A stretch of 64,000 bases of DNA. Origin: Fidelibacterota bacterium (GTDB lineage Bacteria > Fidelibacterota > Marinisomatia > Marinisomatales > Marinisomataceae). Positions 9,814 to 61,433 of the stretch are shown here, one piece after another; position 1 is the first letter of the stretch, and each line of letters starts with the position of its first letter. The notes beneath the pieces are model-generated. The model had not been told where the DNA came from. It did not search any database and saw only the letters and a list, made by a program, of their open reading frames with translations. The stretch spans positions 60,663-124,662 of the forward strand of contig JAOIOW010000003.1 in assembly GCA_028140795.1 (NCBI GenBank), written 5' to 3'. Position numbers and translations under genes: made by a program.

Positions 9814-11018
9814 AATTCAATACCCAATTCCTTTGCAATAGTATTTATATCTTTATCTCCTCTTCCAGATAAATTCAAAATAACATGTTCATTTTTTTTG
9901 ATATTATTATTTTTATTTTTTAAATAAGCAACAGCATGTGCAGTTTCTAAAGCTGGAATTATTCCCTCTTTTTCAGACAACCACTTGAATGCTTCTAACG
10001 CTTCATCATCCGTTGCTGATGAATATTCAACTCTTTTGGTTTTTTGAAGATAACTGTGTTCTGGACCAATTCCTGGATAATCTAAACCTGCAGATAAAGA
10101 ATAAGGTAAAGCAATTTGACCATCCATACTTTGTAGTAACATTGATGCTGCACCATGTAATACACCAAATTCACCCTTCGTAAGAGTAGCAGCATGCTGA
10201 TTTGTATCAATCCCCTTTCCTGCAGCTTCAACTCCAACTATTTTTACATCATCATCAATGAAAGGATAAAATAAGCCAAGAGCATTAGACCCACCACCAA
10301 CACATGCTATAAGTCTATCAGGTAATTTTTTATTAGTCATATCTGTAAATTGTTTTTTTGTTTCAGTACCAATTACAGATTGAAAATCACGAACAAGCAT
10401 TGGGTATGGATGAGGTCCAACAGAAGAACCAATAATGTAGAATGTATCTTCTACATTTGTTACCCAATCCCTAATTGCTTCATTGGTAGCATCTTTTAAA
10501 GTTTTAGATCCAGAAGTAACAGGTATAACTTTTGCACCCATTAAATTAATTTTAAACACATTTAGCTTTTGACGCTCAATATCTTCCTCGCCCATATAAA
10601 CAATACATTCTAAACCAAATTTAGCAGCTGCTGCTGCAGTAGCTACACCATGTTGTCCTGCTCCTGTTTCAGCAATAATTCTTTTTTTTCCCATTCTATG
10701 TGCCAATAAAATTTGTCCAAGGGCATTGTTTATTTTATGTGCACCGGTATGATTTAGATCTTCCCTTTTAAGCCATACATTAAAACCTAGTTCTTCGGAA
10801 ATATTTTTAGCTAAGTATAATGGAGTTGGTCTACCTCCGTAATGTTTAAGCAAATTAAAAAATTCTTTTTGGAAATTTTTATCTTTTTTGCTCTTTAAAT
10901 ATTCCTGCTCTAATTCATCCAATGCAGGAATAAGAGTTTCAGGAACATATTTTCCACCAAATTCTTCAAAATGCCCATACTTATCAGGCATATTATATTT
11001 TTTAACTAAATTATCCAA
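9810..11018 (-). CDS. trpB: Tryptophan synthase beta chain
   Basis: '[11 protein letters not shown]' (PLP lysine) and 'GGGSNA' motifs. Confidence 0.97.
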
Positions 11019-11643
11019 AACTAAACTCCTTCTTTTTTGTTTGTTTTAAAATTTTGACAATCCTAAAGATTTTTGACTTACTTTTTAATCCAGGACTTTT
11101 TTCAACACCACTATTTATATCAACTGCATGAGGATTGATCTGATTAATACCATCCAAAATATTATTTTCATTTAAACCCCCTGATAGTATGATTGGAAGA
11201 TTGAATTTAACATTTTCAATTATTTTCCAATTAAAGATTTTACCAGTGCCTCCAAATTGATTTCTTGTTCTATTATCAAGCAGAATTGCGTGTACATCAT
11301 AATTATTTATTACATTTAAATCACTTTTTTTTGAAACAGATAAAGCTTTTATGACCGGAACTTTGAAATTATTACAAAATTCAGGTGTTTCATTTCCGTG
11401 TAGCTGAATTGCATCAAGATTTAATTCATTTATGACATCATTAATAATATTTTTACTCTCATTTACAAAAATGCCAATTTTTTTTAACCCAGAAGAACTC
11501 ATGCTGATTTTTTTTGCATTTTCTATATCAACACATCTTGGGCTTTTACCGTAAAATATCATCCCAATTGCAGTTGCCCCTGCATTTTTTGCATGCAAAG
11601 CGTCTTTATAATTAGTTATACCGCAAATTTTCAAATCTATCAT
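11011..11643 (-). CDS. trpF: Phosphoribosylanthranilate isomerase
   Basis: 'KICGIT', 'IQLHGNE' and position between trpC and trpB. Confidence 0.9.
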
Positions 11644-12398
11644 AACTCTTTTATAATTCGTTCAAGTTTTTTTCCGGGATTTTTACTTTTCATCAAAGAT
11701 GTTCCCATAAGTATGGCATCATATCCCAACTGCTCAACAATTTTTATTTTTTTAATACTTTTAAAACCACTTTCTGCAACTTTAAGCGAATCTTTAGGTA
11801 GTTTTGGAAAAAATCTCTCAAATCTTGAAAAATCAAGTTCCATTTTTTTTAAATTTCTACAATTCACGCCTACAATTGTAGGACTAAGCTCGTTAATAGC
11901 TAAAAGGTTTTTTCTATCGTGAATTTCTACTAATGTTTCCATTTTTTCATTTAATCCAAAGCTATAAAGGTCTGCCAAATCATTATAGTTCAAGGCTTCA
12001 GCAATTAATAAGAAAGCGTCAGAGCCATGGCTCATTCCTTGTAAAATTTGTTTTTTACTTATGATAAAATCTTTTTGCATAACAGGAATGTTCACTGCAT
12101 TTTTAATATCCTTTAAAAATTTAATATCACCATTAAAAAATCGTCTATCAGTCAGAACAGAAATAGCTGCAGCGCCAGCATTTTCATAATCTTTAGCAAT
12201 TTGAATATGTTCACCCTTTTTAAGAATTATTCCCTCACTTGGTGATGCAAATTTTATTTCTGCAATTATAGATATTTTGCCTCCTTTTAAAGCTTTTTTT
12301 AAACTGAGTCTTTTATAGTTGGAGCTTTCTAAATGTAGTTCAGGAATTTTCTTAATTTCTGTTTTTTTATGATTCAAAATCTTATCTAAAATATTCAC
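11640..12398 (-). CDS. trpC: Indole-3-glycerol-phosphate synthase
   Basis: 'IIAEIKFASPSEG', 'ISVLTD' and 'VGVNCRNL' motifs. Confidence 0.93.
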   Translation of the reverse strand: MNILDKILNHKKTEIKKIPELHLESSNYKRLSLKKALKGGKISIIAEIKFASPSEGIILKKGEHIQIAKDYENAGAAAISVLTDRRFFNGDIKFLKDIKNAVNIPVMQKDFIISKKQILQGMSHGSDAFLLIAEALNYNDLADLYSFGLNEKMETLVEIHDRKNLLAINELSPTIVGVNCRNLKKMELDFSRFERFFPKLPKDSLKVAESGFKSIKKIKIVEQLGYDAILMGTSLMKSKNPGKKLERIIKEL

Positions 12399-53506: not shown

Positions 53507-54109
53507 ATGAGAAATAATCTATTAGTAACTATTTTATTTTTAGCTTCCAGTTCTATTATTCTATCTCAAGATTTAAGAATTAAAAATTTGCAAATTGAAT
53601 CAAAAAATAACGGTACAGTTATCCAGCTTGATTCCAACAAGAAAGTAAATCTTGAAAATGTTACTGCTTGGTATTCTTCAGAATGGTTCTACATGACGAT
53701 ATATGATGCTAATGCAGATAGTTTATCTTTAGCTAATTACAAAAATGATTCTTTAAAAAATATTGAAGTTTCAAATAGCGATGAATCTACTCAAATTGCT
53801 GTTCAATTATTTTCAGAGATTGAATCTTTTGAAATAAATACTCCGAACAGAAAAACTTTGCAATTTTTCCTGAGAAATAGTCAATTAGTTGCCAAAAATA
53901 GTATTTCTGTGGAAGATGAAATTGATATTGTTCAAACAGAAGAAAAAACTCCAAAAGAAAAAGATATTATCTATGAAAAAGAGCAACCAAGAAATGCTAA
54001 TAGTAAATTGATAGTCATTGCTGGTTTGATTGTTTCTGCTATAGATATTACAAACTCAACATCTTTTTCAGCTGGAGCATTAATAGCAATAATTGCGAAT
54101 TTCTTATAA
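53507..54109 (+). CDS. Exported protein with C-terminal hydrophobic anchor, unknown function
   Basis: Signal peptide 'LLVTILFLASSSIILSQ' and C-terminal 'LIVIAGLIVSAI...ALIAIIANFL'. Confidence 0.5.
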   Translation: MRNNLLVTILFLASSSIILSQDLRIKNLQIESKNNGTVIQLDSNKKVNLENVTAWYSSEWFYMTIYDANADSLSLANYKNDSLKNIEVSNSDESTQIAVQLFSEIESFEINTPNRKTLQFFLRNSQLVAKNSISVEDEIDIVQTEEKTPKEKDIIYEKEQPRNANSKLIVIAGLIVSAIDITNSTSFSAGALIAIIANFL

Positions 54110-55144: not shown

Positions 55145-56266
55145 ATGAAAATTGGAATTTTAAAAGAACACAAATCTGGAGAAAAAAGAGTGGCCATCGT
55201 GCCATCTACTGTTTCTGCATTATCTAAAAAAGGATATGAATTTTTTCTGGTATCTGATTCAGGATTATTATCAAACTATTCTGATGATGATTACAAAGAA
55301 GCTGGAGCTAAAATTGTAAGCCAAAATGAAGTTTTTGATTGTGACATTGTTTGTAAAGTAAATGCTCCATCAGATGAGGAAGTATCACTTCTAAAATCAG
55401 GAACACTCTTTATCTCTTTATTACAAACAATTAAAGAAATTGATTGTGTGAAAAAATTAGCAGATAAAAAAGTGTCTGCATTTTCTTTAAACCTGCTTCC
55501 TAGAACTACTTTGGCACAAAAAATGGATGTACTTAGCTCTCAAGCTAATATTGCAGGTTATAAAGCAGTATTAATTGGTTCAAATCATATTGGAAAATAT
55601 ATGCCACTTTTAATGACTGCTGCTGGAACAATTTCTCCTGCAAGAACTTTAGTAATTGGTGCTGGAGTTGCTGGATTGCAAGCGATTGCAACTGCTAAAA
55701 GATTGGGATCTCAAGTAGAAGCATTTGATGTAAGACCTGAAGTAAAAGAACAGGTTGAAAGCTTAGGTGCAAAATTCATCGAAGTTGAAAGCGATTCAGA
55801 TGATGGTGTTGGTTCTGGCGGTTATGCATCAGAAACCAGCGATGAATACAAAGCAAAACAGCAAGAACTAATGAAAGAAAGAGTTGGAAAGTCAGATATA
55901 GTTATTACAACTGCATTGATTCCAAATAGACCTGCACCGATGTTAATACCTAAAAGTATGGTTGAAACTATGGCGCCTGGTTCAGTTATTATGGATTTAG
56001 CTTCTGAAAATGGTGGTAACTGTGAATTAACTCAAGAAAATGAAATAGTTAATCACAATGGCGTATTAATAGATGGTAATTCAAACTTACCAAGCACAAT
56101 GGCATATCACTCTAGCCAACTTTTCTCAAAAAATATTGAGGCTATCATTGATCACTGCCATTCAGAAGAAGGATTTAAACTTGATAAAGAAGACGAGATA
56201 ATTGATGGAATGCTATTTATTGAAAATGGTGAAGTCCGACATCAACCAACAAAGGAGTCAATGTAA
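55145..56266 (+). CDS. pntA: NAD(P) transhydrogenase subunit alpha, part 1
   Basis: AlaDH/PNT fold, 'RVAIVP', 'VIGAGVAGLQAIATAKRLGSQVEAFDVR'. Confidence 0.93.
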   Translation: MKIGILKEHKSGEKRVAIVPSTVSALSKKGYEFFLVSDSGLLSNYSDDDYKEAGAKIVSQNEVFDCDIVCKVNAPSDEEVSLLKSGTLFISLLQTIKEIDCVKKLADKKVSAFSLNLLPRTTLAQKMDVLSSQANIAGYKAVLIGSNHIGKYMPLLMTAAGTISPARTLVIGAGVAGLQAIATAKRLGSQVEAFDVRPEVKEQVESLGAKFIEVESDSDDGVGSGGYASETSDEYKAKQQELMKERVGKSDIVITTALIPNRPAPMLIPKSMVETMAPGSVIMDLASENGGNCELTQENEIVNHNGVLIDGNSNLPSTMAYHSSQLFSKNIEAIIDHCHSEEGFKLDKEDEIIDGMLFIENGEVRHQPTKESM

Positions 56267-56547
56267 TGCAAATTGATATTGTTAGCTTAATTACTATTTT
56301 TATTCTTGCAGTATTTGTTGGGAATGAAATTATAAACAAAGTTCCACCTACATTACACACACCTTTAATGTCTGGTTCAAATGCTATTTCAGGAATTGCT
56401 ATTGTGGGTGCAATTCTAGCGATATTAGCAGATGCAGGTGATGCAAGTAAATATATTGGTTTAGCTGCTTTAATTTGTGCTACTATTAATGTTGTTGGTG
56501 GCTTTCTTGTTACAGATAGAATGTTAAAAATGTTTAAAAAGAAATAA
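56266..56547 (+). CDS. NAD(P) transhydrogenase subunit alpha, part 2 (membrane)
   Basis: 93-aa, 3-TM protein with 'HTPLMSGSNAISGI', sitting between the alpha-1 and beta subunit genes. Confidence 0.9.
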   Translation: MQIDIVSLITIFILAVFVGNEIINKVPPTLHTPLMSGSNAISGIAIVGAILAILADAGDASKYIGLAALICATINVVGGFLVTDRMLKMFKKK

Positions 56548-56550
56548 AAA

Positions 56551-57939
56551 ATGGAAGCTATTCAAATAACAAACATCCTTTATTTAATATCAGCAGTAGC
56601 CTTTATTTTTGGTATTAAAAGATTATCGCATCCGAAAACTGCTCGAAGTGGAAACTTATTATCTTCATTAGGAATGTTAATAGCTATTATTGCGACCTTA
56701 ACATATCCAGGAAAAGAATTTGACTTCACCTTGATACTTGCCGGAGTAGGTATCGGAGCAGTTATTGGAGCAATCTTTGCAACTAGAGTTCAAATGACTG
56801 AAATGCCTCAAATGGTTGCTATTTTTAATGGTCTTGGTGGAGCAGCATCTGCTTTTGTTGCTTCTTCTGAGTTTTTATCATCACCAAATAGTCCATTTAT
56901 CATTGTATGCTTAAGTGTTTTCATTGGATCATTGACTTTTACTGGTAGTTTTGTTGCATTCGGAAAACTTCAAGGATTTATATCAGGAAGAGCTGTTACA
57001 TTTAAAGGTCAACAAGCTATCAATGCTGTGATTGCTCTGCTTTCAGTTTCCTTAATACTTGCACCTGGTTTATTTTTTGATTCATCAATGTACAGTGGTT
57101 ATTTAAATGCATTCTTTGTTATTATTGTTCTTGCATTAATTCTTGGAGTTGGACTTACAATTCCTATCGGTGGTGCAGACATGCCAGTTGTTATCTCACT
57201 TCTGAACTCTTATTCTGGAATTGCTGCGGCAGCTACAGGATTTTTAATTAGTAACAATGCCCTTATTATTAGCGGATCCCTTGTTGGAGCATCAGGGCTG
57301 ATTCTAACAAATATTATGTGTAAAGGAATGAATCGTTCTCTTGCAAATGTAATTTTTGGTGCAGTTGGAGCTGAGTCTGAAGGTGGAAGCTCAGATGGAA
57401 AAGAAATGAATATTAAAAGCTACTCAACAACTGAAGCAGCTATGATTTTAGATGCTGCAGAAAAAATTATTATTGTTCCAGGATATGGACTTGCAGTTGC
57501 TCAAGCACAACACGTTGCTAGAGAAGTAGCCGAATCTCTTGAAGCTATGGGTAAAACAGTATTGTATGCAATTCACCCAGTCGCCGGAAGAATGCCTGGA
57601 CACATGAATGTTTTGCTAGCTGAGGCAAATGTTTCTTATGACGTTTTAAAAGATTTAGATGAAATTAATCCAGAATTTGAGGATTGTGATGTTGCACTTA
57701 TTCTTGGTGCAAATGATGTAGTAAATCCTGCAGCTAGACACGATCAATCTAGTCCTATTTATGGTATGCCTATTTTAAATGTAGACAAATCAAGAACGGT
57801 AATTATTAATAAAAGAAGTATGAATCCAGGTTTTGCTGGAGTGCAAAATGAATTATTTGGATATGACAATTCTATTATGGTTTTTGGTGATGCAAAAGAC
57901 ATGCTAAATGACTTACTTAAAGAAGTAAAAGAATTATAA
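56551..57939 (+). CDS. pntB: NAD(P) transhydrogenase subunit beta
   Basis: Polytopic N-terminal half plus dIII 'VPGYGLAVAQAQH', 'IHPVAGRMPGHMNVLLAEA' and 'GANDVVNPAA'. Confidence 0.95.
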   Translation: MEAIQITNILYLISAVAFIFGIKRLSHPKTARSGNLLSSLGMLIAIIATLTYPGKEFDFTLILAGVGIGAVIGAIFATRVQMTEMPQMVAIFNGLGGAASAFVASSEFLSSPNSPFIIVCLSVFIGSLTFTGSFVAFGKLQGFISGRAVTFKGQQAINAVIALLSVSLILAPGLFFDSSMYSGYLNAFFVIIVLALILGVGLTIPIGGADMPVVISLLNSYSGIAAAATGFLISNNALIISGSLVGASGLILTNIMCKGMNRSLANVIFGAVGAESEGGSSDGKEMNIKSYSTTEAAMILDAAEKIIIVPGYGLAVAQAQHVAREVAESLEAMGKTVLYAIHPVAGRMPGHMNVLLAEANVSYDVLKDLDEINPEFEDCDVALILGANDVVNPAARHDQSSPIYGMPILNVDKSRTVIINKRSMNPGFAGVQNELFGYDNSIMVFGDAKDMLNDLLKEVKEL

Positions 57940-57970
57940 ACTTCTTTTATTTTTTTTTCTATATTAAATC

Positions 57971-58462
57971 ATGTCAAAATCAACTCTCTATGATATCGCA
58001 AATGAATTTGAAAAATCTTTAGACAACTTATTAGATCATGAAGATTCAGATTTAATAAGTGAAATTGAATCAATCGAGGGTGAATTCAAATCGAAATCAG
58101 CTAACGTTGCAAAATATATTCGAAATCTTGAACATTTAGCTTCAGGTATTAAAGAAATAGAAAGCAATCAAAAACATCGTAGAAACTCTTTGGAAAAGAA
58201 AATTACAAGATTAAAAGATTATCTTCGAATTAATTTTGAAAAAACAAACACAGAAAAAATTGAAAGCGATGACATAGTTATTGCTATGTATAAAAATCCT
58301 GTAAAAGTACACATTGTTGATGAAGAAAAAATACCTGAAGAATTCTTTCAGGTGAAAGAAACTAAATTATTGAACAAAGATAAAATAAAAGAATCATTAA
58401 AGAATGGTGAGGATATCCCAGGATGTGAGCTAATTCAAGAAAAGAGAATTAGCATTAAATAA
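57971..58462 (+). CDS. Siphovirus Gp157-like protein
   Basis: 163 aa with an acidic coiled-coil N-terminus. The C-terminus reads '...YKNPVKVHIVDEEKIPEEFF...KLLNKDKIKESLKNGEDIPGCELIQEKRISIK', matching the Gp157 family pattern as I recall it. Confidence 0.65.
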   Translation: MSKSTLYDIANEFEKSLDNLLDHEDSDLISEIESIEGEFKSKSANVAKYIRNLEHLASGIKEIESNQKHRRNSLEKKITRLKDYLRINFEKTNTEKIESDDIVIAMYKNPVKVHIVDEEKIPEEFFQVKETKLLNKDKIKESLKNGEDIPGCELIQEKRISIK

Positions 58463-58468
58463 ATTATT

Positions 58469-59059
58469 ATGAAATTTTTAGCAAAATATAGGATGTATTT
58501 TTTGAGAGTTTCTATTTTACTTCTTATAGTTTTATCAGTTACAAATAATGACTTTAGAGCCTATACTCTTGAAATAACCACTATCGAATCATTACAAATG
58601 AGTATTTTAGGCTTTGTACTGGTTGTTTTTGGTTCATTTGGTAGAATTTGGGCTTCATTATATATTGAAGGCAATAAAACAAAAAATCTTATTACTGCTG
58701 GACCTTTTTCAATGGTAAGAAATCCATTATACTTTTTTAGTTTAATAATGTTATTAGGTTTTAGTTTAGCATTAAAAGCTATTTATCTTCCTTTGGCTCT
58801 CCTATTAATTTTTGTTTTATTTCACGTACCAACTATTGCTAATGAAGAAAGAAAACTTAGAAAAAATCATGGAGATAAATTTGAAAGTTATATGAAATCT
58901 ACTCCTAGATTAATTCCAAATATTTTTAAGTACAAAAGACCAGAAACTGGGGAAAAAGTATTAGTTAAAATTAGCAGAATAAATGGTGTACTTATTGAAG
59001 TAATTGGATATTTATTTCTATATACTCTTATTGATATAATATATTTTATTTTAGATTAA
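58469..59059 (+). CDS. ICMT/PEMT-like membrane methyltransferase family protein
   Basis: About 4-5 TM helices. 'GPFSMVRNPLYFFSL' and 'EERKLRKNHGDKFESYMKSTPRLIP' match the family's C-terminal signature. Confidence 0.7.
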   Translation: MKFLAKYRMYFLRVSILLLIVLSVTNNDFRAYTLEITTIESLQMSILGFVLVVFGSFGRIWASLYIEGNKTKNLITAGPFSMVRNPLYFFSLIMLLGFSLALKAIYLPLALLLIFVLFHVPTIANEERKLRKNHGDKFESYMKSTPRLIPNIFKYKRPETGEKVLVKISRINGVLIEVIGYLFLYTLIDIIYFILD

Positions 59060-59767
59060 TTCTTTTTCACGAAGCATATTTATTAGATCTTCGCTTTTGT
59101 ACTCTACATTAAAGATTTCATAGGTATCATTTTCTTTTAAATGAAATAAAGTTTGGCTACCTACCTCTAACCCATAGTAACGTTCAAGAATATATCTATA
59201 AAATGATAGTTGTAAAGAATAATGCATAAAATTGCAATCGTCTAAATGTTTTGATGATGAAAGTATTCCTTTCTTGTTCCTAAACGAATTTTTATCAATT
59301 CTTTTATTAGTTTTCCAATCAACTAAATGATACATATTTTGTTCACTATTGTAGACAAGTAAGTCAATTGTTCCTGCTATTCCTAATTCTTTTGAATAGA
59401 CAATAACTTCTGAAAAAAATGAGTTGTGCTCATTCTTTTGTTTCTCTTTTAACCATCTAACACCTGTAATTGACATTTGATGTTTTGGATCAATATTTTC
59501 TTTTACATACATCTCTAATTCATTATGAACTATTGTACCTCTTTCTGCGCCTTTACCCCACTCTTTAAGTACTTCATTTAACGTTTTGCCGCTATACTTA
59601 GGGTTAGTATTTATCAACTTAGTAGCTACTTTTTCTTGATCAAACTTTTCAAAAAAGAAATGGATGAACTCTGTAACGCTTGAAAATTTAAATTCAGGAC
59701 TACTATTAAGAATATATTTATGATTTTCTTGATCTAAACTAATATCGTTTTTGAATAATTCATTCAT
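59051..59767 (-). CDS. RecB-family PD-(D/E)XK nuclease
   Basis: 'GTIVHNELE', 'GTIDLLVY...HLVDWKTNK' (D...D/E-x-K core) and 'QLSFYRYIL' (QxxxY motif). No Cas4-type Cys cluster. Confidence 0.7.
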   Translation of the reverse strand: MNELFKNDISLDQENHKYILNSSPEFKFSSVTEFIHFFFEKFDQEKVATKLINTNPKYSGKTLNEVLKEWGKGAERGTIVHNELEMYVKENIDPKHQMSITGVRWLKEKQKNEHNSFFSEVIVYSKELGIAGTIDLLVYNSEQNMYHLVDWKTNKRIDKNSFRNKKGILSSSKHLDDCNFMHYSLQLSFYRYILERYYGLEVGSQTLFHLKENDTYEIFNVEYKSEDLINMLREKELI

Positions 59768-59769
59768 TC

Positions 59770-59994
59770 TTAACCTTCATGTAAAACATCTTTATTCTTA
59801 GAACCTCGGAGCTTATTAACTCTTCTTCTAGTAACTCTTCTCTGATAAAAACCAAGCGACCACCCTAAAAGCAATAAAATTGGAATTATAGCTCGATCAG
59901 GAGTATCAGATTTTAATGTAAAGTATAAAAGTAGCAATGCAGTTATCAATTGTATTGAAAACTGAATTGAATTAATCGCTTTCAGTTTATTCAT
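59770..59994 (-). CDS. Small 2-TM membrane protein with basic tail
   Basis: 74 aa. TAATG overlap with the pepA stop. Its own stop lies 2 nt before the nuclease ATG. Confidence 0.5.
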   Translation of the reverse strand: MNKLKAINSIQFSIQLITALLLLYFTLKSDTPDRAIIPILLLLGWSLGFYQRRVTRRRVNKLRGSKNKDVLHEG

Positions 59995-61433
59995 TAAGCA
60001 CCGAGCATATCGAGCACTAATCTTATCACTTGTCCAGAAGCACTATTTTTTTGAATATAACTTCTGTTTTCTACATGATATGAAGTTCCTGCAACATCGA
60101 AATGAGCCCAGGGAATATCTTTACCAACAAATGCTTTAAGGAATGCTCCGCCAGCAATAGTTCCTGCTTGACCTGGTGATCCTAAGTTCTTTACATCGGC
60201 AACCTCGGATTTGACTTGATCGCAATATTCATCCCATAATGGTAGTTGCCATACATGTTCTCCGGTATTATCAGAAGAAACTTTAATGTTTTCTACTAGT
60301 GTTTCATTATTGCTCATTATTCCTGTGGCTATATGACCAAGAGTAATAACCACAGCACCCGTTAATGTTGCAAAATCTAGCATATACTCTGGGTCGTAAT
60401 GCTTACTTGCATATGCCAAAGCATCAGCAAGAATTAATCTACCTTCTGCATCAGTATTTAAAACTTCAATAGTTTTTCCATTGTATGCAGTTAGAATATC
60501 TCCAGGTTTATAGGCTGAGCCACCTAACATATTATGCGTTGAAGGAACAATAGCTACAACGTTCATCTTAGGTTGTAATTCAGCTATAGCATTCATCACT
60601 CCAAATACAACCGCTGAACCGCACATATCAAATTTCATTCGGTCCATATTTAAACCAGGTTTAAGTGAAACTCCTCCTGTATCAAAAGTTAAACCTTTTC
60701 CTACAAGCAATACTGGCTTTTCACTTTTCTTTCCTCCAAAATATTCCATAATGATAAACTTTGGAGGTTCATTTGTGCCTTGAGCTACCCCGGCAAATGA
60801 TCCCATGCCCATCTTAGTAAATTCTTCTCTGTCAAAAACTGTAACTTTCATATTACCTTTTTTGCCAACTTCTTTTGCAAAATTTGCCAACCTTGTTGGA
60901 GTAGTCACATTTCCAGGATGATTGCCAAGATCTCTTGAATCACAAACAGCACTTGCAATAATTGCACCTTTTTTTGCTGCATCTTGATTACAAGCATCAA
61001 CCATAGTAATGCTCTTCAAATGATACTCTCCTCTTTCATCCGTGAAATAATCTAAAAATCTATAACTTGAAAGGATCAAACCTTCTGCAAATGCCTGACA
61101 AAAATATTCACCCTCATCTGTTACAGGACACTCAACTGCAATATCACTGTATTTATGCTGCAAAGCATAACCCACAACTTCCCCAGCTGCTCTTCTGAAA
61201 TTTTCTGCTGTTTTATCAGATGAATCACCTAGACCGTAATAAACTATTCTTGAATTATTATCGATTTCAAAAACAAGATCTCCAACCTTTCCTGTTTTAT
61301 TTTGAGATTTGAACAATTCTTCTAAATCTTTATCCATTTTATCTGAAAATGTTGGTACCGCAACCATCCCATAATTTTCATCTACTAAATCTTTATGATT
61401 TTTTAAAAAGTTTAATTTTTTTATGTGTGCCAT
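59994..61433 (-). CDS. pepA: Leucyl aminopeptidase (M17)
   Basis: 'VGKGLTFDTGG', 'NTDAEGRL' and 'TLTGA' motifs. Confidence 0.95.
   Translation of the reverse strand: MAHIKKLNFLKNHKDLVDENYGMVAVPTFSDKMDKDLEELFKSQNKTGKVGDLVFEIDNNSRIVYYGLGDSSDKTAENFRRAAGEVVGYALQHKYSDIAVECPVTDEGEYFCQAFAEGLILSSYRFLDYFTDERGEYHLKSITMVDACNQDAAKKGAIIASAVCDSRDLGNHPGNVTTPTRLANFAKEVGKKGNMKVTVFDREEFTKMGMGSFAGVAQGTNEPPKFIIMEYFGGKKSEKPVLLVGKGLTFDTGGVSLKPGLNMDRMKFDMCGSAVVFGVMNAIAELQPKMNVVAIVPSTHNMLGGSAYKPGDILTAYNGKTIEVLNTDAEGRLILADALAYASKHYDPEYMLDFATLTGAVVITLGHIATGIMSNNETLVENIKVSSDNTGEHVWQLPLWDEYCDQVKSEVADVKNLGSPGQAGTIAGGAFLKAFVGKDIPWAHFDVAGTSYHVENRSYIQKNSASGQVIRLVLDMLGA

Follow-up and report, generated by a model that had tools for sequence, protein, structure and literature searches.

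A phage-type Gp157 gene, a membrane methyltransferase gene and a RecB-family nuclease gene conserved among housekeeping genes in Marinimicrobia (SAR406)

Closest described systems

The Gam protein of phage Mu is Ku-like: as a dimer, it binds double-strand DNA ends and keeps exonucleases from acting on them. The Siphovirus Gp157 family (PF05565, PHROG 253) comprises proteins of ~160 aa, and its phage copies, such as Listeria phage PSA gp46, Brevibacillus phage Jimmer1 gp73, and Shigella phage Sf11 gp8, are encoded in replication/recombination modules, where their neighbors are an annealase (Sak4 or ERF), SSB, and a helicase. We analyzed a 64,000-nucleotide stretch of DNA from Marinimicrobia (SAR406), hereafter the window, which encodes a Gp157-family protein of the same size that is 32-36% identical to phage Gp157 proteins, matches the family over its full length, and has the same predicted long helix and beta-rich C-terminus. 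Whereas the phage copies belong to replication/recombination modules, the window protein is chromosomal and fixed across a bacterial lineage. It also has remote homology over nearly its whole length to Mu Gam (PF07352, PHROG 491), which is of similar size. The founding member of the Gp157 family had been tied to phage sensitivity, a link repeated in a sequence-only reading of this locus; however, it comes from the PER effect of a 302-bp origin element, which is non-coding, and not from the protein (PMC6356513).

In the window, as in Lambda Red and RecET modules, end-protector-like and exonuclease-like proteins are encoded close together. However, the annealase that defines those modules is missing from the window, where the two genes are convergent, belong to different operons, and form a pair that does not recur elsewhere. 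The window nuclease has the fold and the D...D-x-K and QxxxY motifs of MGME1, AddAB/AdnAB, Cas4, EXO5, and RecE; it differs in being a stand-alone protein of 238 aa with no helicase partner. Among phage proteins, it resembles the PHROG 298 “exonuclease” family (E = 9e-25), which includes Flavobacterium phage FpV4 gp24 and the crAssphage nuclease. Shield is an RmuC-based system described only in Pseudomonas defense islands, where it has different partners (PMC10270631); sister clades of the window's clade share an RmuC with Shield, but their partners differ and the window itself lacks rmuC.

Organization and conservation of the locus

The gene encoding the Gp157-family protein (163 aa; PF05565 E = 2e-37; PHROG 253 E = 1e-36) occupies positions 57971..58462 on the forward strand, and its ORF starts 31 nt past the pntB stop codon. 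An ICMT/PEMT-superfamily membrane methyltransferase (196 aa; PEMT 4e-10, ICMT 3e-6), hereafter PEMT, is encoded on the same strand at 58469..59059, starting 6 nt past the end of the Gp157 ORF. A stand-alone RecB-family PD-(D/E)XK nuclease (238 aa; PDDEXK_1 2e-7) is encoded on the reverse strand at 59051..59767, and its ORF converges on that of the methyltransferase with an overlap of 9 nt (59051-59059). The sequence-only reading had given the positions, the lengths, and the convergent overlap of all three ORFs exactly, and its three family calls were borne out by Pfam and motif checks.

The nuclease gene is the last gene of an (ICL)-4HBT-pepA-tm74-nuclease operon on the strand opposite to Gp157-PEMT. 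Within this operon, tm74 (59770..59994, reverse strand) encodes a small hydrophobic protein of 74 aa, with a 2-nt gap to the nuclease gene and a 1-nt overlap with pepA; further upstream, pepA (59994..61433, reverse strand) encodes a leucyl aminopeptidase of the M17 type, based on Peptidase_M17 domains in an orthologous locus. The flanks consist of housekeeping genes (alaS, pntAB, pepA, 4HBT, isocitrate lyase, and malate synthase).

We recovered 23 related Marinimicrobia species genomes. Gp157 and the nuclease were found at the same site in 23/23 of them, and the methyltransferase in 22/23; intact ORFs were also present in hundreds of metagenome contigs. Estimates of dN/dS were 0.10-0.15 for Gp157, 0.11-0.18 for PEMT, and 0.04-0.055 for the nuclease, as compared with 0.08 for pntB and 0.04-0.07 for pepA. 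Conservation in 23 species genomes and dN/dS of 0.04-0.18 confirm that the three genes are real rather than chance ORFs. The neighborhood comparison that had been proposed from sequence thus found Gp157 and the nuclease syntenic in all 23 relatives, and the accompanying suggestion that a function has kept the genes in place agrees with intact ORFs in these genomes, purifying selection, and the ordinary third-position GC content (GC3) of Gp157 and the nuclease.

Our main reading, to which we assign a probability of roughly 0.55, is that all three are SAR406 host genes, long fixed and inherited vertically, which form two separate units and not one module. Several observations sit uneasily with it: a role at DNA ends leaves the tight coupling of Gp157 and PEMT unexplained; two basal groups have Gp157, RmuC, and nuclease genes side by side, which could mean a real functional linkage and not coincidence; gene-precise allele replacements of the nuclease and of Gp157, described below, hint at selection of the phage-interaction type; and the similarity to Mu Gam is missed by Pfam and by a shallow profile.

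Base composition bears on whether the genes arrived recently. The overall GC content of the three genes (0.25-0.28) is lower than that of the flanks. However, the z scores for GC3 relative to the window genes are -0.4 for Gp157 and +0.85 for the nuclease, both within 1 standard deviation, and -2.65 for PEMT; for Gp157 and the nuclease, the low GC content sits in the first two codon positions, a pattern that other weakly conserved window genes share. A recent horizontal insertion, which the description of the genes as “wedged” between operons could imply, was rejected on the ordinary GC3 of Gp157 and the nuclease.

Another possibility is that the genes are a decaying prophage or mobile-element remnant without host function. 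The membership of Gp157 and the nuclease in phage-rich families and the low overall GC content would fit such a remnant, but the ORFs are intact across the 23 species genomes and the metagenome contigs, dN/dS points to purifying selection on each of the three genes, and their catalytic and cofactor motifs are invariant. The window contains no tRNA, no Rfam match, and no CRISPR-like or tandem array, and the only att-like repeats around the genes are short, imperfect, and AT-rich; no integrase, phage structural genes, or tRNA target was found there. The view that no intact prophage is present therefore stands, with credible repeats and phage genes absent and housekeeping genes on the flanks. Because the site is conserved in relatives, selection is purifying, and neither Gp157 nor the nuclease has an unusual GC3, we regard a decaying remnant as exceedingly improbable.

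The locus does recombine. Gene-precise allele replacement affected the nuclease in locus L018 and Gp157 in locus L030; the latter lost PEMT and kept Gp157, albeit swapped for another intact allele. Discordant, divergent alleles were also found in the housekeeping gene pntB, and recombination is therefore general at this locus.

Gp157 and the methyltransferase

The Gp157 protein scored 129.1 bits against PF05565 (cut-off, 28.6 bits), with residues 5-163 aligned to profile positions 1-162 of 162; the profile search called for in the sequence-only reading thus returned a full-length match. In an AF2 model (pLDDT 85.7), the protein consists of a short helix, a long helix at residues 26-92, and a beta-rich C-terminal domain at residues 96-162. 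Using hhalign with profiles of 94 and 81 sequences and with controls, we aligned Gp157 to the Mu Gam family with a probability of 90.1% (E = 1.6e-6), whereas reversed controls gave ≤1.6%. Gp157 residues 32-158 are colinear with Gam residues 37-160, and the C-terminal domain, which is the strongest part of the match, reached 86% by itself. An earlier, shallow comparison of a 14-sequence Gp157 profile with a single Mu Gam sequence had given 3.6%. Based on the profile-profile comparison, Gp157 is a remote homolog of phage Mu Gam, though not a direct member of PF07352: the Pfam search with Gp157 gave no PF07352 match at E ≤ 1, and Mu Gam maps to its own PHROG and not to that of Gp157.

Searches with the Gp157 model and profile identified little else. 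Foldseek against the PDB returned designed coiled coils only, the search against BFVD returned Gp157 itself and uncharacterized phage proteins (none named Gam), and the Gp157 profile had no significant match among PDB sequences. Mu Gam suggests that Gp157 would dimerize via its long helix and bind or protect DNA ends for the host. If it does so, it would show how streamlined marine bacteria add a domesticated phage gene to a reduced repair toolkit.

The Gp157 family is very common in phages, with 6,545 clusters at 50% identity. The direct neighbors of Gp157 in 80 viral loci include ERF (17), AAA_24 (8), SSB (6), and Rad52 (2). Beyond the lineage, the nearest relatives of the window protein (40-43% identity) adjoin ERF, or adjoin AAA_24 with SSB near, or lie near an integrase and a repressor; these phage contexts uphold the earlier suggestion that Gp157 is of phage origin. 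In a single-query search of IMG/VR, no close relatives of Gp157 were found. In the window, no ERF, Sak4, Rad52, SSB, or replication gene adjoins Gp157, and nowhere in the 64 kb is there a relative of any of the 148 proteins that neighbor viral Gp157. (Our literature search found no joint mention of “Gp157” and “Sak4.”) Gp157 is best read as a domesticated phage gene stripped of its annealase (ERF, Sak4, or Rad52) and SSB partners. A host-fixed, constrained Gp157 without phage partners offers a clean natural case for studying what this protein does on its own.

The methyltransferase scored 40.5 bits against PEMT (PF04191; cut-off, 25 bits) and 28 bits against ICMT (PF04140; cut-off, 24 bits), but it fits none of the NCBIfam subfamilies ICMT, LmtA, and MddA, as its scores were below the equivalog cut-offs (50/160, 44/325, and 16/270 bits, respectively). 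It has hydrophobic segments and the C-terminal cofactor motif of the superfamily, and residues G78-P79, R84-N-P-L-Y88, E126-E127, and T145-P-R-L148 are invariant in 27 orthologs. The match to the Methanosarcina acetivorans ICMT structure (4A2N) was weak (E = 6e-4), and the region of the cofactor motif aligns. Prenylated CaaX proteins are not known in bacteria, and a lipid or small molecule is for that reason the more likely substrate. PEMT is nearly missing from phages (3/50,697 records), and a single-query search of IMG/VR found no close relatives. It is best read as a cellular enzyme of the membrane, expressed together with Gp157.

Wherever a genome carries both Gp157 and PEMT, the two genes lie a few to ~50 nt apart. 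Upstream, a hairpin lies over the pntB stop codon and is followed by a T-run (57919..57958, forward strand); it resembles a terminator, with an RNA fold of -10.8 kcal/mol (z = -2.5 vs. shuffles). The sister clade has a GC-containing hairpin and T-run at the same place, and this sister-clade hairpin shows compensatory changes (ACTCTGA/TCAGAGT vs. ACCCTGA/TCAGGGT). This element looks like a putative terminator that parts pntB from Gp157. A TATATT box (57960..57965, forward strand) lies 5 nt 5′ of the Gp157 ATG and is a candidate -10-type promoter element. The 11 loci that were aligned, drawn from both clades, all share its ATATT core, and the box stays with Gp157 whether the upstream gene is pntB or ADH; TATATA/TATATT-like boxes also precede other window genes. 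A consensus promoter/terminator scan gave background levels only, which is uninformative in AT-rich DNA, and it missed the hairpin because this has fewer than three GC pairs. From sequence patterns of this kind, the TATATT box may be the promoter of a near-leaderless Gp157-PEMT transcript, and Gp157 and PEMT would form a short transcript of their own, bounded by the terminator-like hairpin behind pntB.

In another reading, Gp157 of this lineage no longer acts on DNA and instead serves the co-transcribed methyltransferase as a coiled-coil adaptor or regulator, with the nuclease an unrelated neighbor. The long helix that dominates the model, the lack of the canonical DNA partners, and the adjacency to PEMT wherever both genes occur are all consistent with such a protein. 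However, L030 kept Gp157 after losing PEMT, even acquiring another intact allele; the Gam-like C-terminal domain is the best-conserved part of the match; and the Gp157-PEMT pairing was found nowhere outside the lineage (80 viral Gp157 loci, the IMG/VR PEMT query, and 50,697 phage records). We consider an adaptor role improbable.

The nuclease and its relationship to Gp157

The nuclease scored 31.6 bits against PDDEXK_1 (PF12705; cut-off, 22 bits), and residues D135, D150-W-K152, and Q186-x-x-x-Y190 are invariant in 21 homologs (42-87% identity). Both motifs and fold place it in the RecB family of PD-(D/E)XK nucleases: with the AF2 model (pLDDT 94.1), Foldseek listed MGME1, the nuclease domains of AdnAB/AddAB, EXO5, Cas4, and RecE as the best structures, with E = 1e-5 to 1e-3 for MGME1, AddA, AdnA, and Cas4 (MGME1: E ~1e-5, TM ~0.55). 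At the sequence level, the nuclease matched no solved structure. In the 21-sequence alignment, a single cysteine column (C178) is invariant, and the window protein has no other cysteine; because there is just one conserved cysteine, the nuclease lacks a Cas4/AddB-type 4-Cys Fe-S cluster. An identification as Cas4 was rejected on this cysteine count, on a score of 21 bits against a cut-off of 65 bits (NCBIfam/TIGR00372), and on the absence of a CRISPR array or cas genes nearby. In our main reading, the nuclease would be an independent host enzyme, MGME1/AddAB/Cas4-like and without an Fe-S cluster, and its role would be the trimming of DNA ends, or of single strands, during recombination or repair in the host. 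The analysis shows family membership, homology to Gam, conservation, purifying selection, the geometry of the operons, and a lack of co-occurrence elsewhere; DNA-end binding by Gp157, the polarity of the nuclease, and any cooperation between the two proteins are points that we infer.

Two basal groups carry an rmuC gene (Pfam 5e-50) that separates PEMT from the nuclease gene. In the sister clades, rmuC is directly downstream of the nuclease gene with a 4-nt overlap, and its product is membrane-anchored; in the deepest branch, genes for a homocysteine S-methyltransferase and an EF-G paralog also lie between PEMT and the nuclease. The present 9-nt overlap between PEMT and the nuclease gene arose because the window's clade lost rmuC.

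These arrangements raise the possibility of a cooperating repair module, in which DNA ends are held by the Gam-like Gp157 and then processed by the nuclease, with RmuC as an ancestral partner; together they would be a minimal end-protection/resection or NHEJ-like kit suited to a streamlined genome. Gp157 is homologous to Gam, the nuclease resembles the end-processing enzymes MGME1, AddAB, and Dna2, all genes of the proposed module are under purifying selection, and Gp157, RmuC, and the nuclease are encoded by neighboring genes in the two basal groups and within ~5 kb in the deepest branch. However, Gp157 and the nuclease are encoded on opposite strands and by different operons, and the neighborhood is kept only within one lineage; since the whole region is syntenic there, the adjacency of Gp157 and the nuclease carries little information. 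The usual partner of Gp157 is an annealase and not a PD-(D/E)XK nuclease, and close relatives of the nuclease stand alone in a Bacteroidota chromosome. The nuclease or PEMT was found in 0/80 viral Gp157 loci, and Gp157, PEMT, or RmuC in 0/80 viral nuclease loci; the phage database showed no co-occurrence either. No named host genus was common to its match lists (433 records for Gp157, 48 for the nuclease), and no recombination partner was recognizable beside the phage homologs of the nuclease (FpV4, crAssphage). We therefore treat a repair module as a tentative and rather unlikely alternative. More doubtful still is a wider version, in which an abundant ocean bacterium with a streamlined genome would have captured a Gam/Ku-like phage protein, kept it for very long without its annealase, and built around it a minimal host double-strand-end system (protection or ligase-assisted joining), maybe with the nuclease and an ancestral RmuC, and maybe tied to the membrane via the methyltransferase.

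The Gp157-plus-nuclease pair, or three-gene module, of the sequence-only reading accordingly gives way to two separate units, with opposite strands, rmuC interposed in relatives, and no recurrence in 160 viral loci. For annotators, the lesson is a cautionary and mostly negative one: in a highly syntenic lineage, the adjacency of phage-type genes should not be taken as evidence for a module, prophage remnant, or defense system.

A role in anti-phage defense or counter-defense was the other function considered at the outset; for example, the nuclease could degrade incoming DNA while the Gam-like protein shields host ends or senses phage ends. Both families are abundant in phages, the gene-precise replacements in L018 and L030 hint at selection of the phage-interaction type, RmuC domains can act in defense, as in Shield (PMC10270631), and a tm74 homolog (E = 1e-13) occurs together with a nuclease homolog in one phage-like contig family. 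However, PADLOC gave no system-level or significant specific match. With PADLOC-DB 2.0, the window proteins showed only fold-level Cas4 matches (1e-6) and weak coiled-coil matches (5e-4), so that the check once proposed did not point to a known defense system, and among the sister-clade proteins RmuC gave only a domain-level RTasRmuC match, again with no system. Nor is the locus a variable island, as it is syntenic and constrained within housekeeping operons in 23/23 genomes. The allele swaps were rejected as proof of defense, given that pntB alleles diverge and are discordant too, and the published link between Gp157 and resistance belongs to the non-coding origin. Shield has so far been found in Pseudomonas only, and housekeeping RmuC is excluded from it (PMC10270631). 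We give a defense function little credence.

The small protein encoded by tm74 matched no Pfam family. It is missing in loci L019, L025, and L030, and it is kept at 69-99% identity in most related loci, with a dN/dS of 0.13.

Families of the three genes

Between pntB and pepA, the window encodes a 163-aa Gp157-like protein (57971..58462, + strand), a 196-aa methyltransferase (58469..59059, + strand) and a 238-aa nuclease (59051..59767, - strand) whose gene overlaps the methyltransferase gene by 9 nt. The same three open reading frames had been placed in a sequence-only reading, and profile searches bore out its family calls. The Gp157-like protein (hereafter Gp157) matched PF05565 across the whole domain (E=2e-37) and PHROG 253 (1e-36). 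The methyltransferase scored above the cut-offs of several ICMT/PEMT clan models (PEMT 4e-10, ICMT 3e-6) and below the cut-off of every NCBIfam equivalog; its alignment to the archaeal ICMT structure 4A2N is weak, and its cofactor-binding residues are kept in 27 of 27 orthologues.

The nuclease matched PDDEXK_1 (2e-7) and PHROG 298, labeled “exonuclease” (9e-25). The RecB motifs claimed for it earlier (D135, D150-W-K152, Q186...Y190) are invariant in an alignment of 21 homologues with 42-87% identity. No sequence-level match was found in the PDB. Its structure model (pLDDT 94.1, pTM 0.89) is nearest to human MGME1 (E ~1e-5, TM ~0.55), followed by the nuclease domains of AdnA and AddA, EXO5, Cas4 family proteins, RecE and Dna2. 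Because it has a single conserved cysteine, the window nuclease lacks the Fe-S cluster of Cas4 and AddB.

Conservation and transcriptional setting

Based on the source names of homologues and related contigs, the lineage is Marinimicrobia / Neomarinimicrobiota (SAR406). Some public labels appear to be wrong: L017 (RQOS01000049.1), a locus with exact Marinimicrobia synteny, is filed as “SAR202 cluster bacterium”, and, in a set of labels covering the homologous proteins P0047 and P0042, a Gp157 orthologue is assigned to “Rickettsiales bacterium TMED289” and one orthologue is called “ribosomal protein S15P/S13E” by its source.

In a scan of one genome per species, Gp157 was present in 23 of 23 loci, the gene directly before it being pntB or an inserted ADH gene, and a tblastn map of 13 window proteins showed almost perfect synteny across all loci. 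Pairwise Nei-Gojobori dN/dS was 0.10-0.15 for Gp157, 0.11-0.18 for the methyltransferase and 0.04-0.055 for the nuclease, compared with 0.08 for pntB and 0.04-0.07 for pepA. From this constraint and synteny, the trio is best read as functional host genes that have long been resident, and the earlier idea that they were retained for a function was right. They belong to known families, in a setting that is unusual but explicable. An unannotated 200-aa protein nearby (53507-54109), with a signal-peptide-like N-terminus, evolves by far the fastest in the region (dN/dS 0.35; 42-55% identity vs 75-90% for its neighbours) and matches no Pfam or PHROG family.

The flanking genes are alaS, an alpha/beta hydrolase gene, pntAB, pepA, and genes for a 4HBT thioesterase, isocitrate lyase and malate synthase. 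We found no tRNA, Rfam match or repeat array in the window, and repeats beside the trio are short and chance-like, so the absences noted from sequence alone hold. The GC dip over the trio is mostly an effect of codon positions 1 and 2. Gp157 (z=-0.4) and the nuclease (z=+0.85) have ordinary GC3, the methyltransferase (z=-2.65) being the only low one of the three, and several further window genes are similarly AT-rich. A decaying prophage is ruled out by the synteny in 23 loci and the low dN/dS, and a recent insertion by the ordinary GC3 of Gp157 and the nuclease.

The pntB stop codon lies within a hairpin that has a T-run behind it (57919-57958; -10.8 kcal/mol, z=-2.5), and a TATATT box (57960-57965) lies 5 nt ahead of the Gp157 ATG. 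Across 11 loci of both clades the ATATT core does not vary, and comparable boxes precede other window genes. At the same position the sister clade has a GC-containing hairpin, a T-run and the same box, whether pntB or ADH lies upstream, with compensatory substitutions in the stem (ACTCTGA/TCAGAGT, ACCCTGA/TCAGGGT, ACTCTGA/TCAGGGT). In loci L028, L031, L032, L033 and L030, this terminator-like hairpin (locus positions ~9955-9990) is ~45-15 nt upstream of Gp157, with the T-run and TATATT box after it. From the hairpin, T-run and conserved box, we infer that Gp157 and the methyltransferase share a separate, near-leaderless transcript. The nuclease gene, on the opposite strand, is tightly packed behind pepA and a gene for a 74-aa hydrophobic protein (1-nt overlap, 2-nt gap), which places it at the end of a housekeeping operon.

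In two basal groups, a membrane-anchored 316-aa RmuC (Pfam 5e-50) separates the methyltransferase from the nuclease (L028 and L031-L035, ~11120-12076; L006, 12088-12787), its gene overlapping that of the nuclease by 4 nt; in L006/L007, the deepest branch, genes for a homocysteine S-methyltransferase and an EF-G paralogue stand between the two as well. In the window’s clade, rmuC is absent from the locus, and it occurs nowhere in the 64-kb window; the convergent 9-nt overlap is thus a by-product of rmuC loss. Some relatives have a 337-aa NADP-dependent oxidoreductase (ADH_N_2/ADH_zinc_N) as an insertion between pntB and Gp157 (L028:8904-9917; L031; L033; L007:2502-3515); it too is missing from the window’s clade.

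Gam homology, phage relatives and co-occurrence

In PHROGs, PHROG 253 bears the label “Mu Gam-like end protection”, whereas Mu Gam itself is in PHROG 491 and Gp157 has no Gam match in Pfam; we therefore tested the label. A shallow profile comparison failed (3.6%). Using hhalign with 94 Gp157 and 81 Mu Gam-family sequences, we obtained 90.1% probability (E=1.6e-6) and a colinear alignment (Gp157 32-158, Gam 37-160). The C-terminal domain alone gave 86%, the N-terminal helix alone 1.3%, and reversed-sequence controls ≤1.6%. In the AF2 model of Gp157 (pLDDT 85.7), a short helix precedes one of 67 residues and a beta-rich domain. At the level of sequence profiles, Gp157 is homologous to Mu Gam.

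Phage Gp157 genes adjoin an annealase gene (Sak4 in PSA and Sf11, ERF in Jimmer1), followed by SSB and by helicase or primase genes. Among 148 immediate neighbours in 80 viral Gp157 loci were ERF (17), AAA_24/Sak4 (8), SSB (6) and Rad52 (2); none of the 148 has a relative in the window. Within the family (6,545 clusters at 50% identity), the SAR406 clade is set apart by a gap, with ≥55% identity inside and ≤43% outside. Its three nearest outside relatives are all phage-borne: one adjoins ERF, one adjoins AAA_24 with SSB three genes downstream, and one has an integrase and a repressor a few genes away. More distant relatives occur in mobile-element settings with RadC, ArdC and Rad52. By these comparisons, SAR406 Gp157 is an orphaned, domesticated phage gene; this host-fixed, partnerless Gam-like protein is the main interest of a locus of modest interest overall.

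Neither the nuclease family nor the methyltransferase occurred within ±8 kb in 80 IMG/VR loci with Gp157 relatives, and neither Gp157, the methyltransferase nor RmuC occurred in 80 (of at least 382) IMG/VR loci with nuclease relatives. GenBank phages encode Gp157 in 433 records (Streptococcus, Staphylococcus, Listeria, Clostridium, Escherichia and others) and the nuclease in 48 (Flavobacterium phages, crAssphages, megaphages), with no named host genus in common; the methyltransferase is in 3 of 50,697 phage records. In a Bacteroidota chromosome, the nuclease family also appears on its own. The trio was never found together outside the SAR406 lineage. With opposite strands, rmuC interposed in relatives and co-occurrence in 0 of 160 viral loci, the Gp157-plus-nuclease or three-gene module proposed earlier is unsupported. 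The main alternative, that Gp157, RmuC and the nuclease truly cooperate, draws on their adjacency in the basal RmuC-bearing groups, but we consider it unlikely, as adjacency is informative only inside this one fully syntenic lineage. For the domesticated Gp157, we suggest a role as a dimer that binds DNA ends or shields them. In host recombination or repair, the nuclease may trim ends or single strands, and may ancestrally have done so with RmuC; the methyltransferase would simply be co-expressed with Gp157.

Allele exchange among relatives

In L018, a genome otherwise 92-98% identical, the nuclease gene alone is swapped for a 251-aa allele (L018:11081-11836, corresponding to window 59051-59767); nucleotide identity falls to 45-80% exactly inside the open reading frame and is back at 98% in the gene that follows. 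With ~57-66% identity to all other Marinimicrobia alleles, the new allele (P0132 type) comes from an unsampled donor. L030 carries a sister-clade-type Gp157 allele (L030:10001-10492 with downstream sequence, corresponding to window 57971-59059) between window-clade-type flanks, with ~80% nt identity to L035 and 56% aa identity to the window, and has wholly lost the methyltransferase and 74-aa genes. The pntB alleles of L002, L017 and L021 (pntAB, window 55145-57939) are 82-83% identical to the window, whereas identity in the genes immediately following is 91-99% for L017 and L021 and 81-94% for L002; the pntB and concatenated trees also conflict. Exchange with divergent alleles by homologous recombination therefore seems common here, a breakpoint lying near the boundary of pntB and Gp157.

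That single alleles were replaced with gene precision, the nuclease in L018 and Gp157 in L030, might suggest a defence role, but discordant alleles occur in pntB too and the gene content of the locus is not variable. PADLOC found no defence system, and the defence reading raised earlier is unsupported; we regard such a role as improbable. The phage sensitivity attributed to the founding Gp157, often quoted as a link to phage resistance, traces to a 302-bp non-coding origin fragment, not to the protein (PMC6356513).

In L024 (MAG CM1_5m.P33), flanks with 99-100% identity to the window enclose a broken-up, strongly divergent stretch from the Gp157 C-terminus to pepA (L024:10440-13410; nuclease 36-47%; pepA 59% and interrupted by a stop codon), which probably reflects an assembly or long-read error rather than biology. 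The 74-aa protein has a homologue (E=1e-13) in a phage-like contig family with 36% GC, many small ORFs and two ClpP genes (window 59770-59994, - strand; L010:4402-4608; L124/L125:5279-5608). There it lies ~2.4 kb upstream of a nuclease homologue (44% identity) that the contig itself encodes, and an ATP-dependent DNA ligase separates the two; these contigs could represent a phage of SAR406 with a history of gene exchange with its host.
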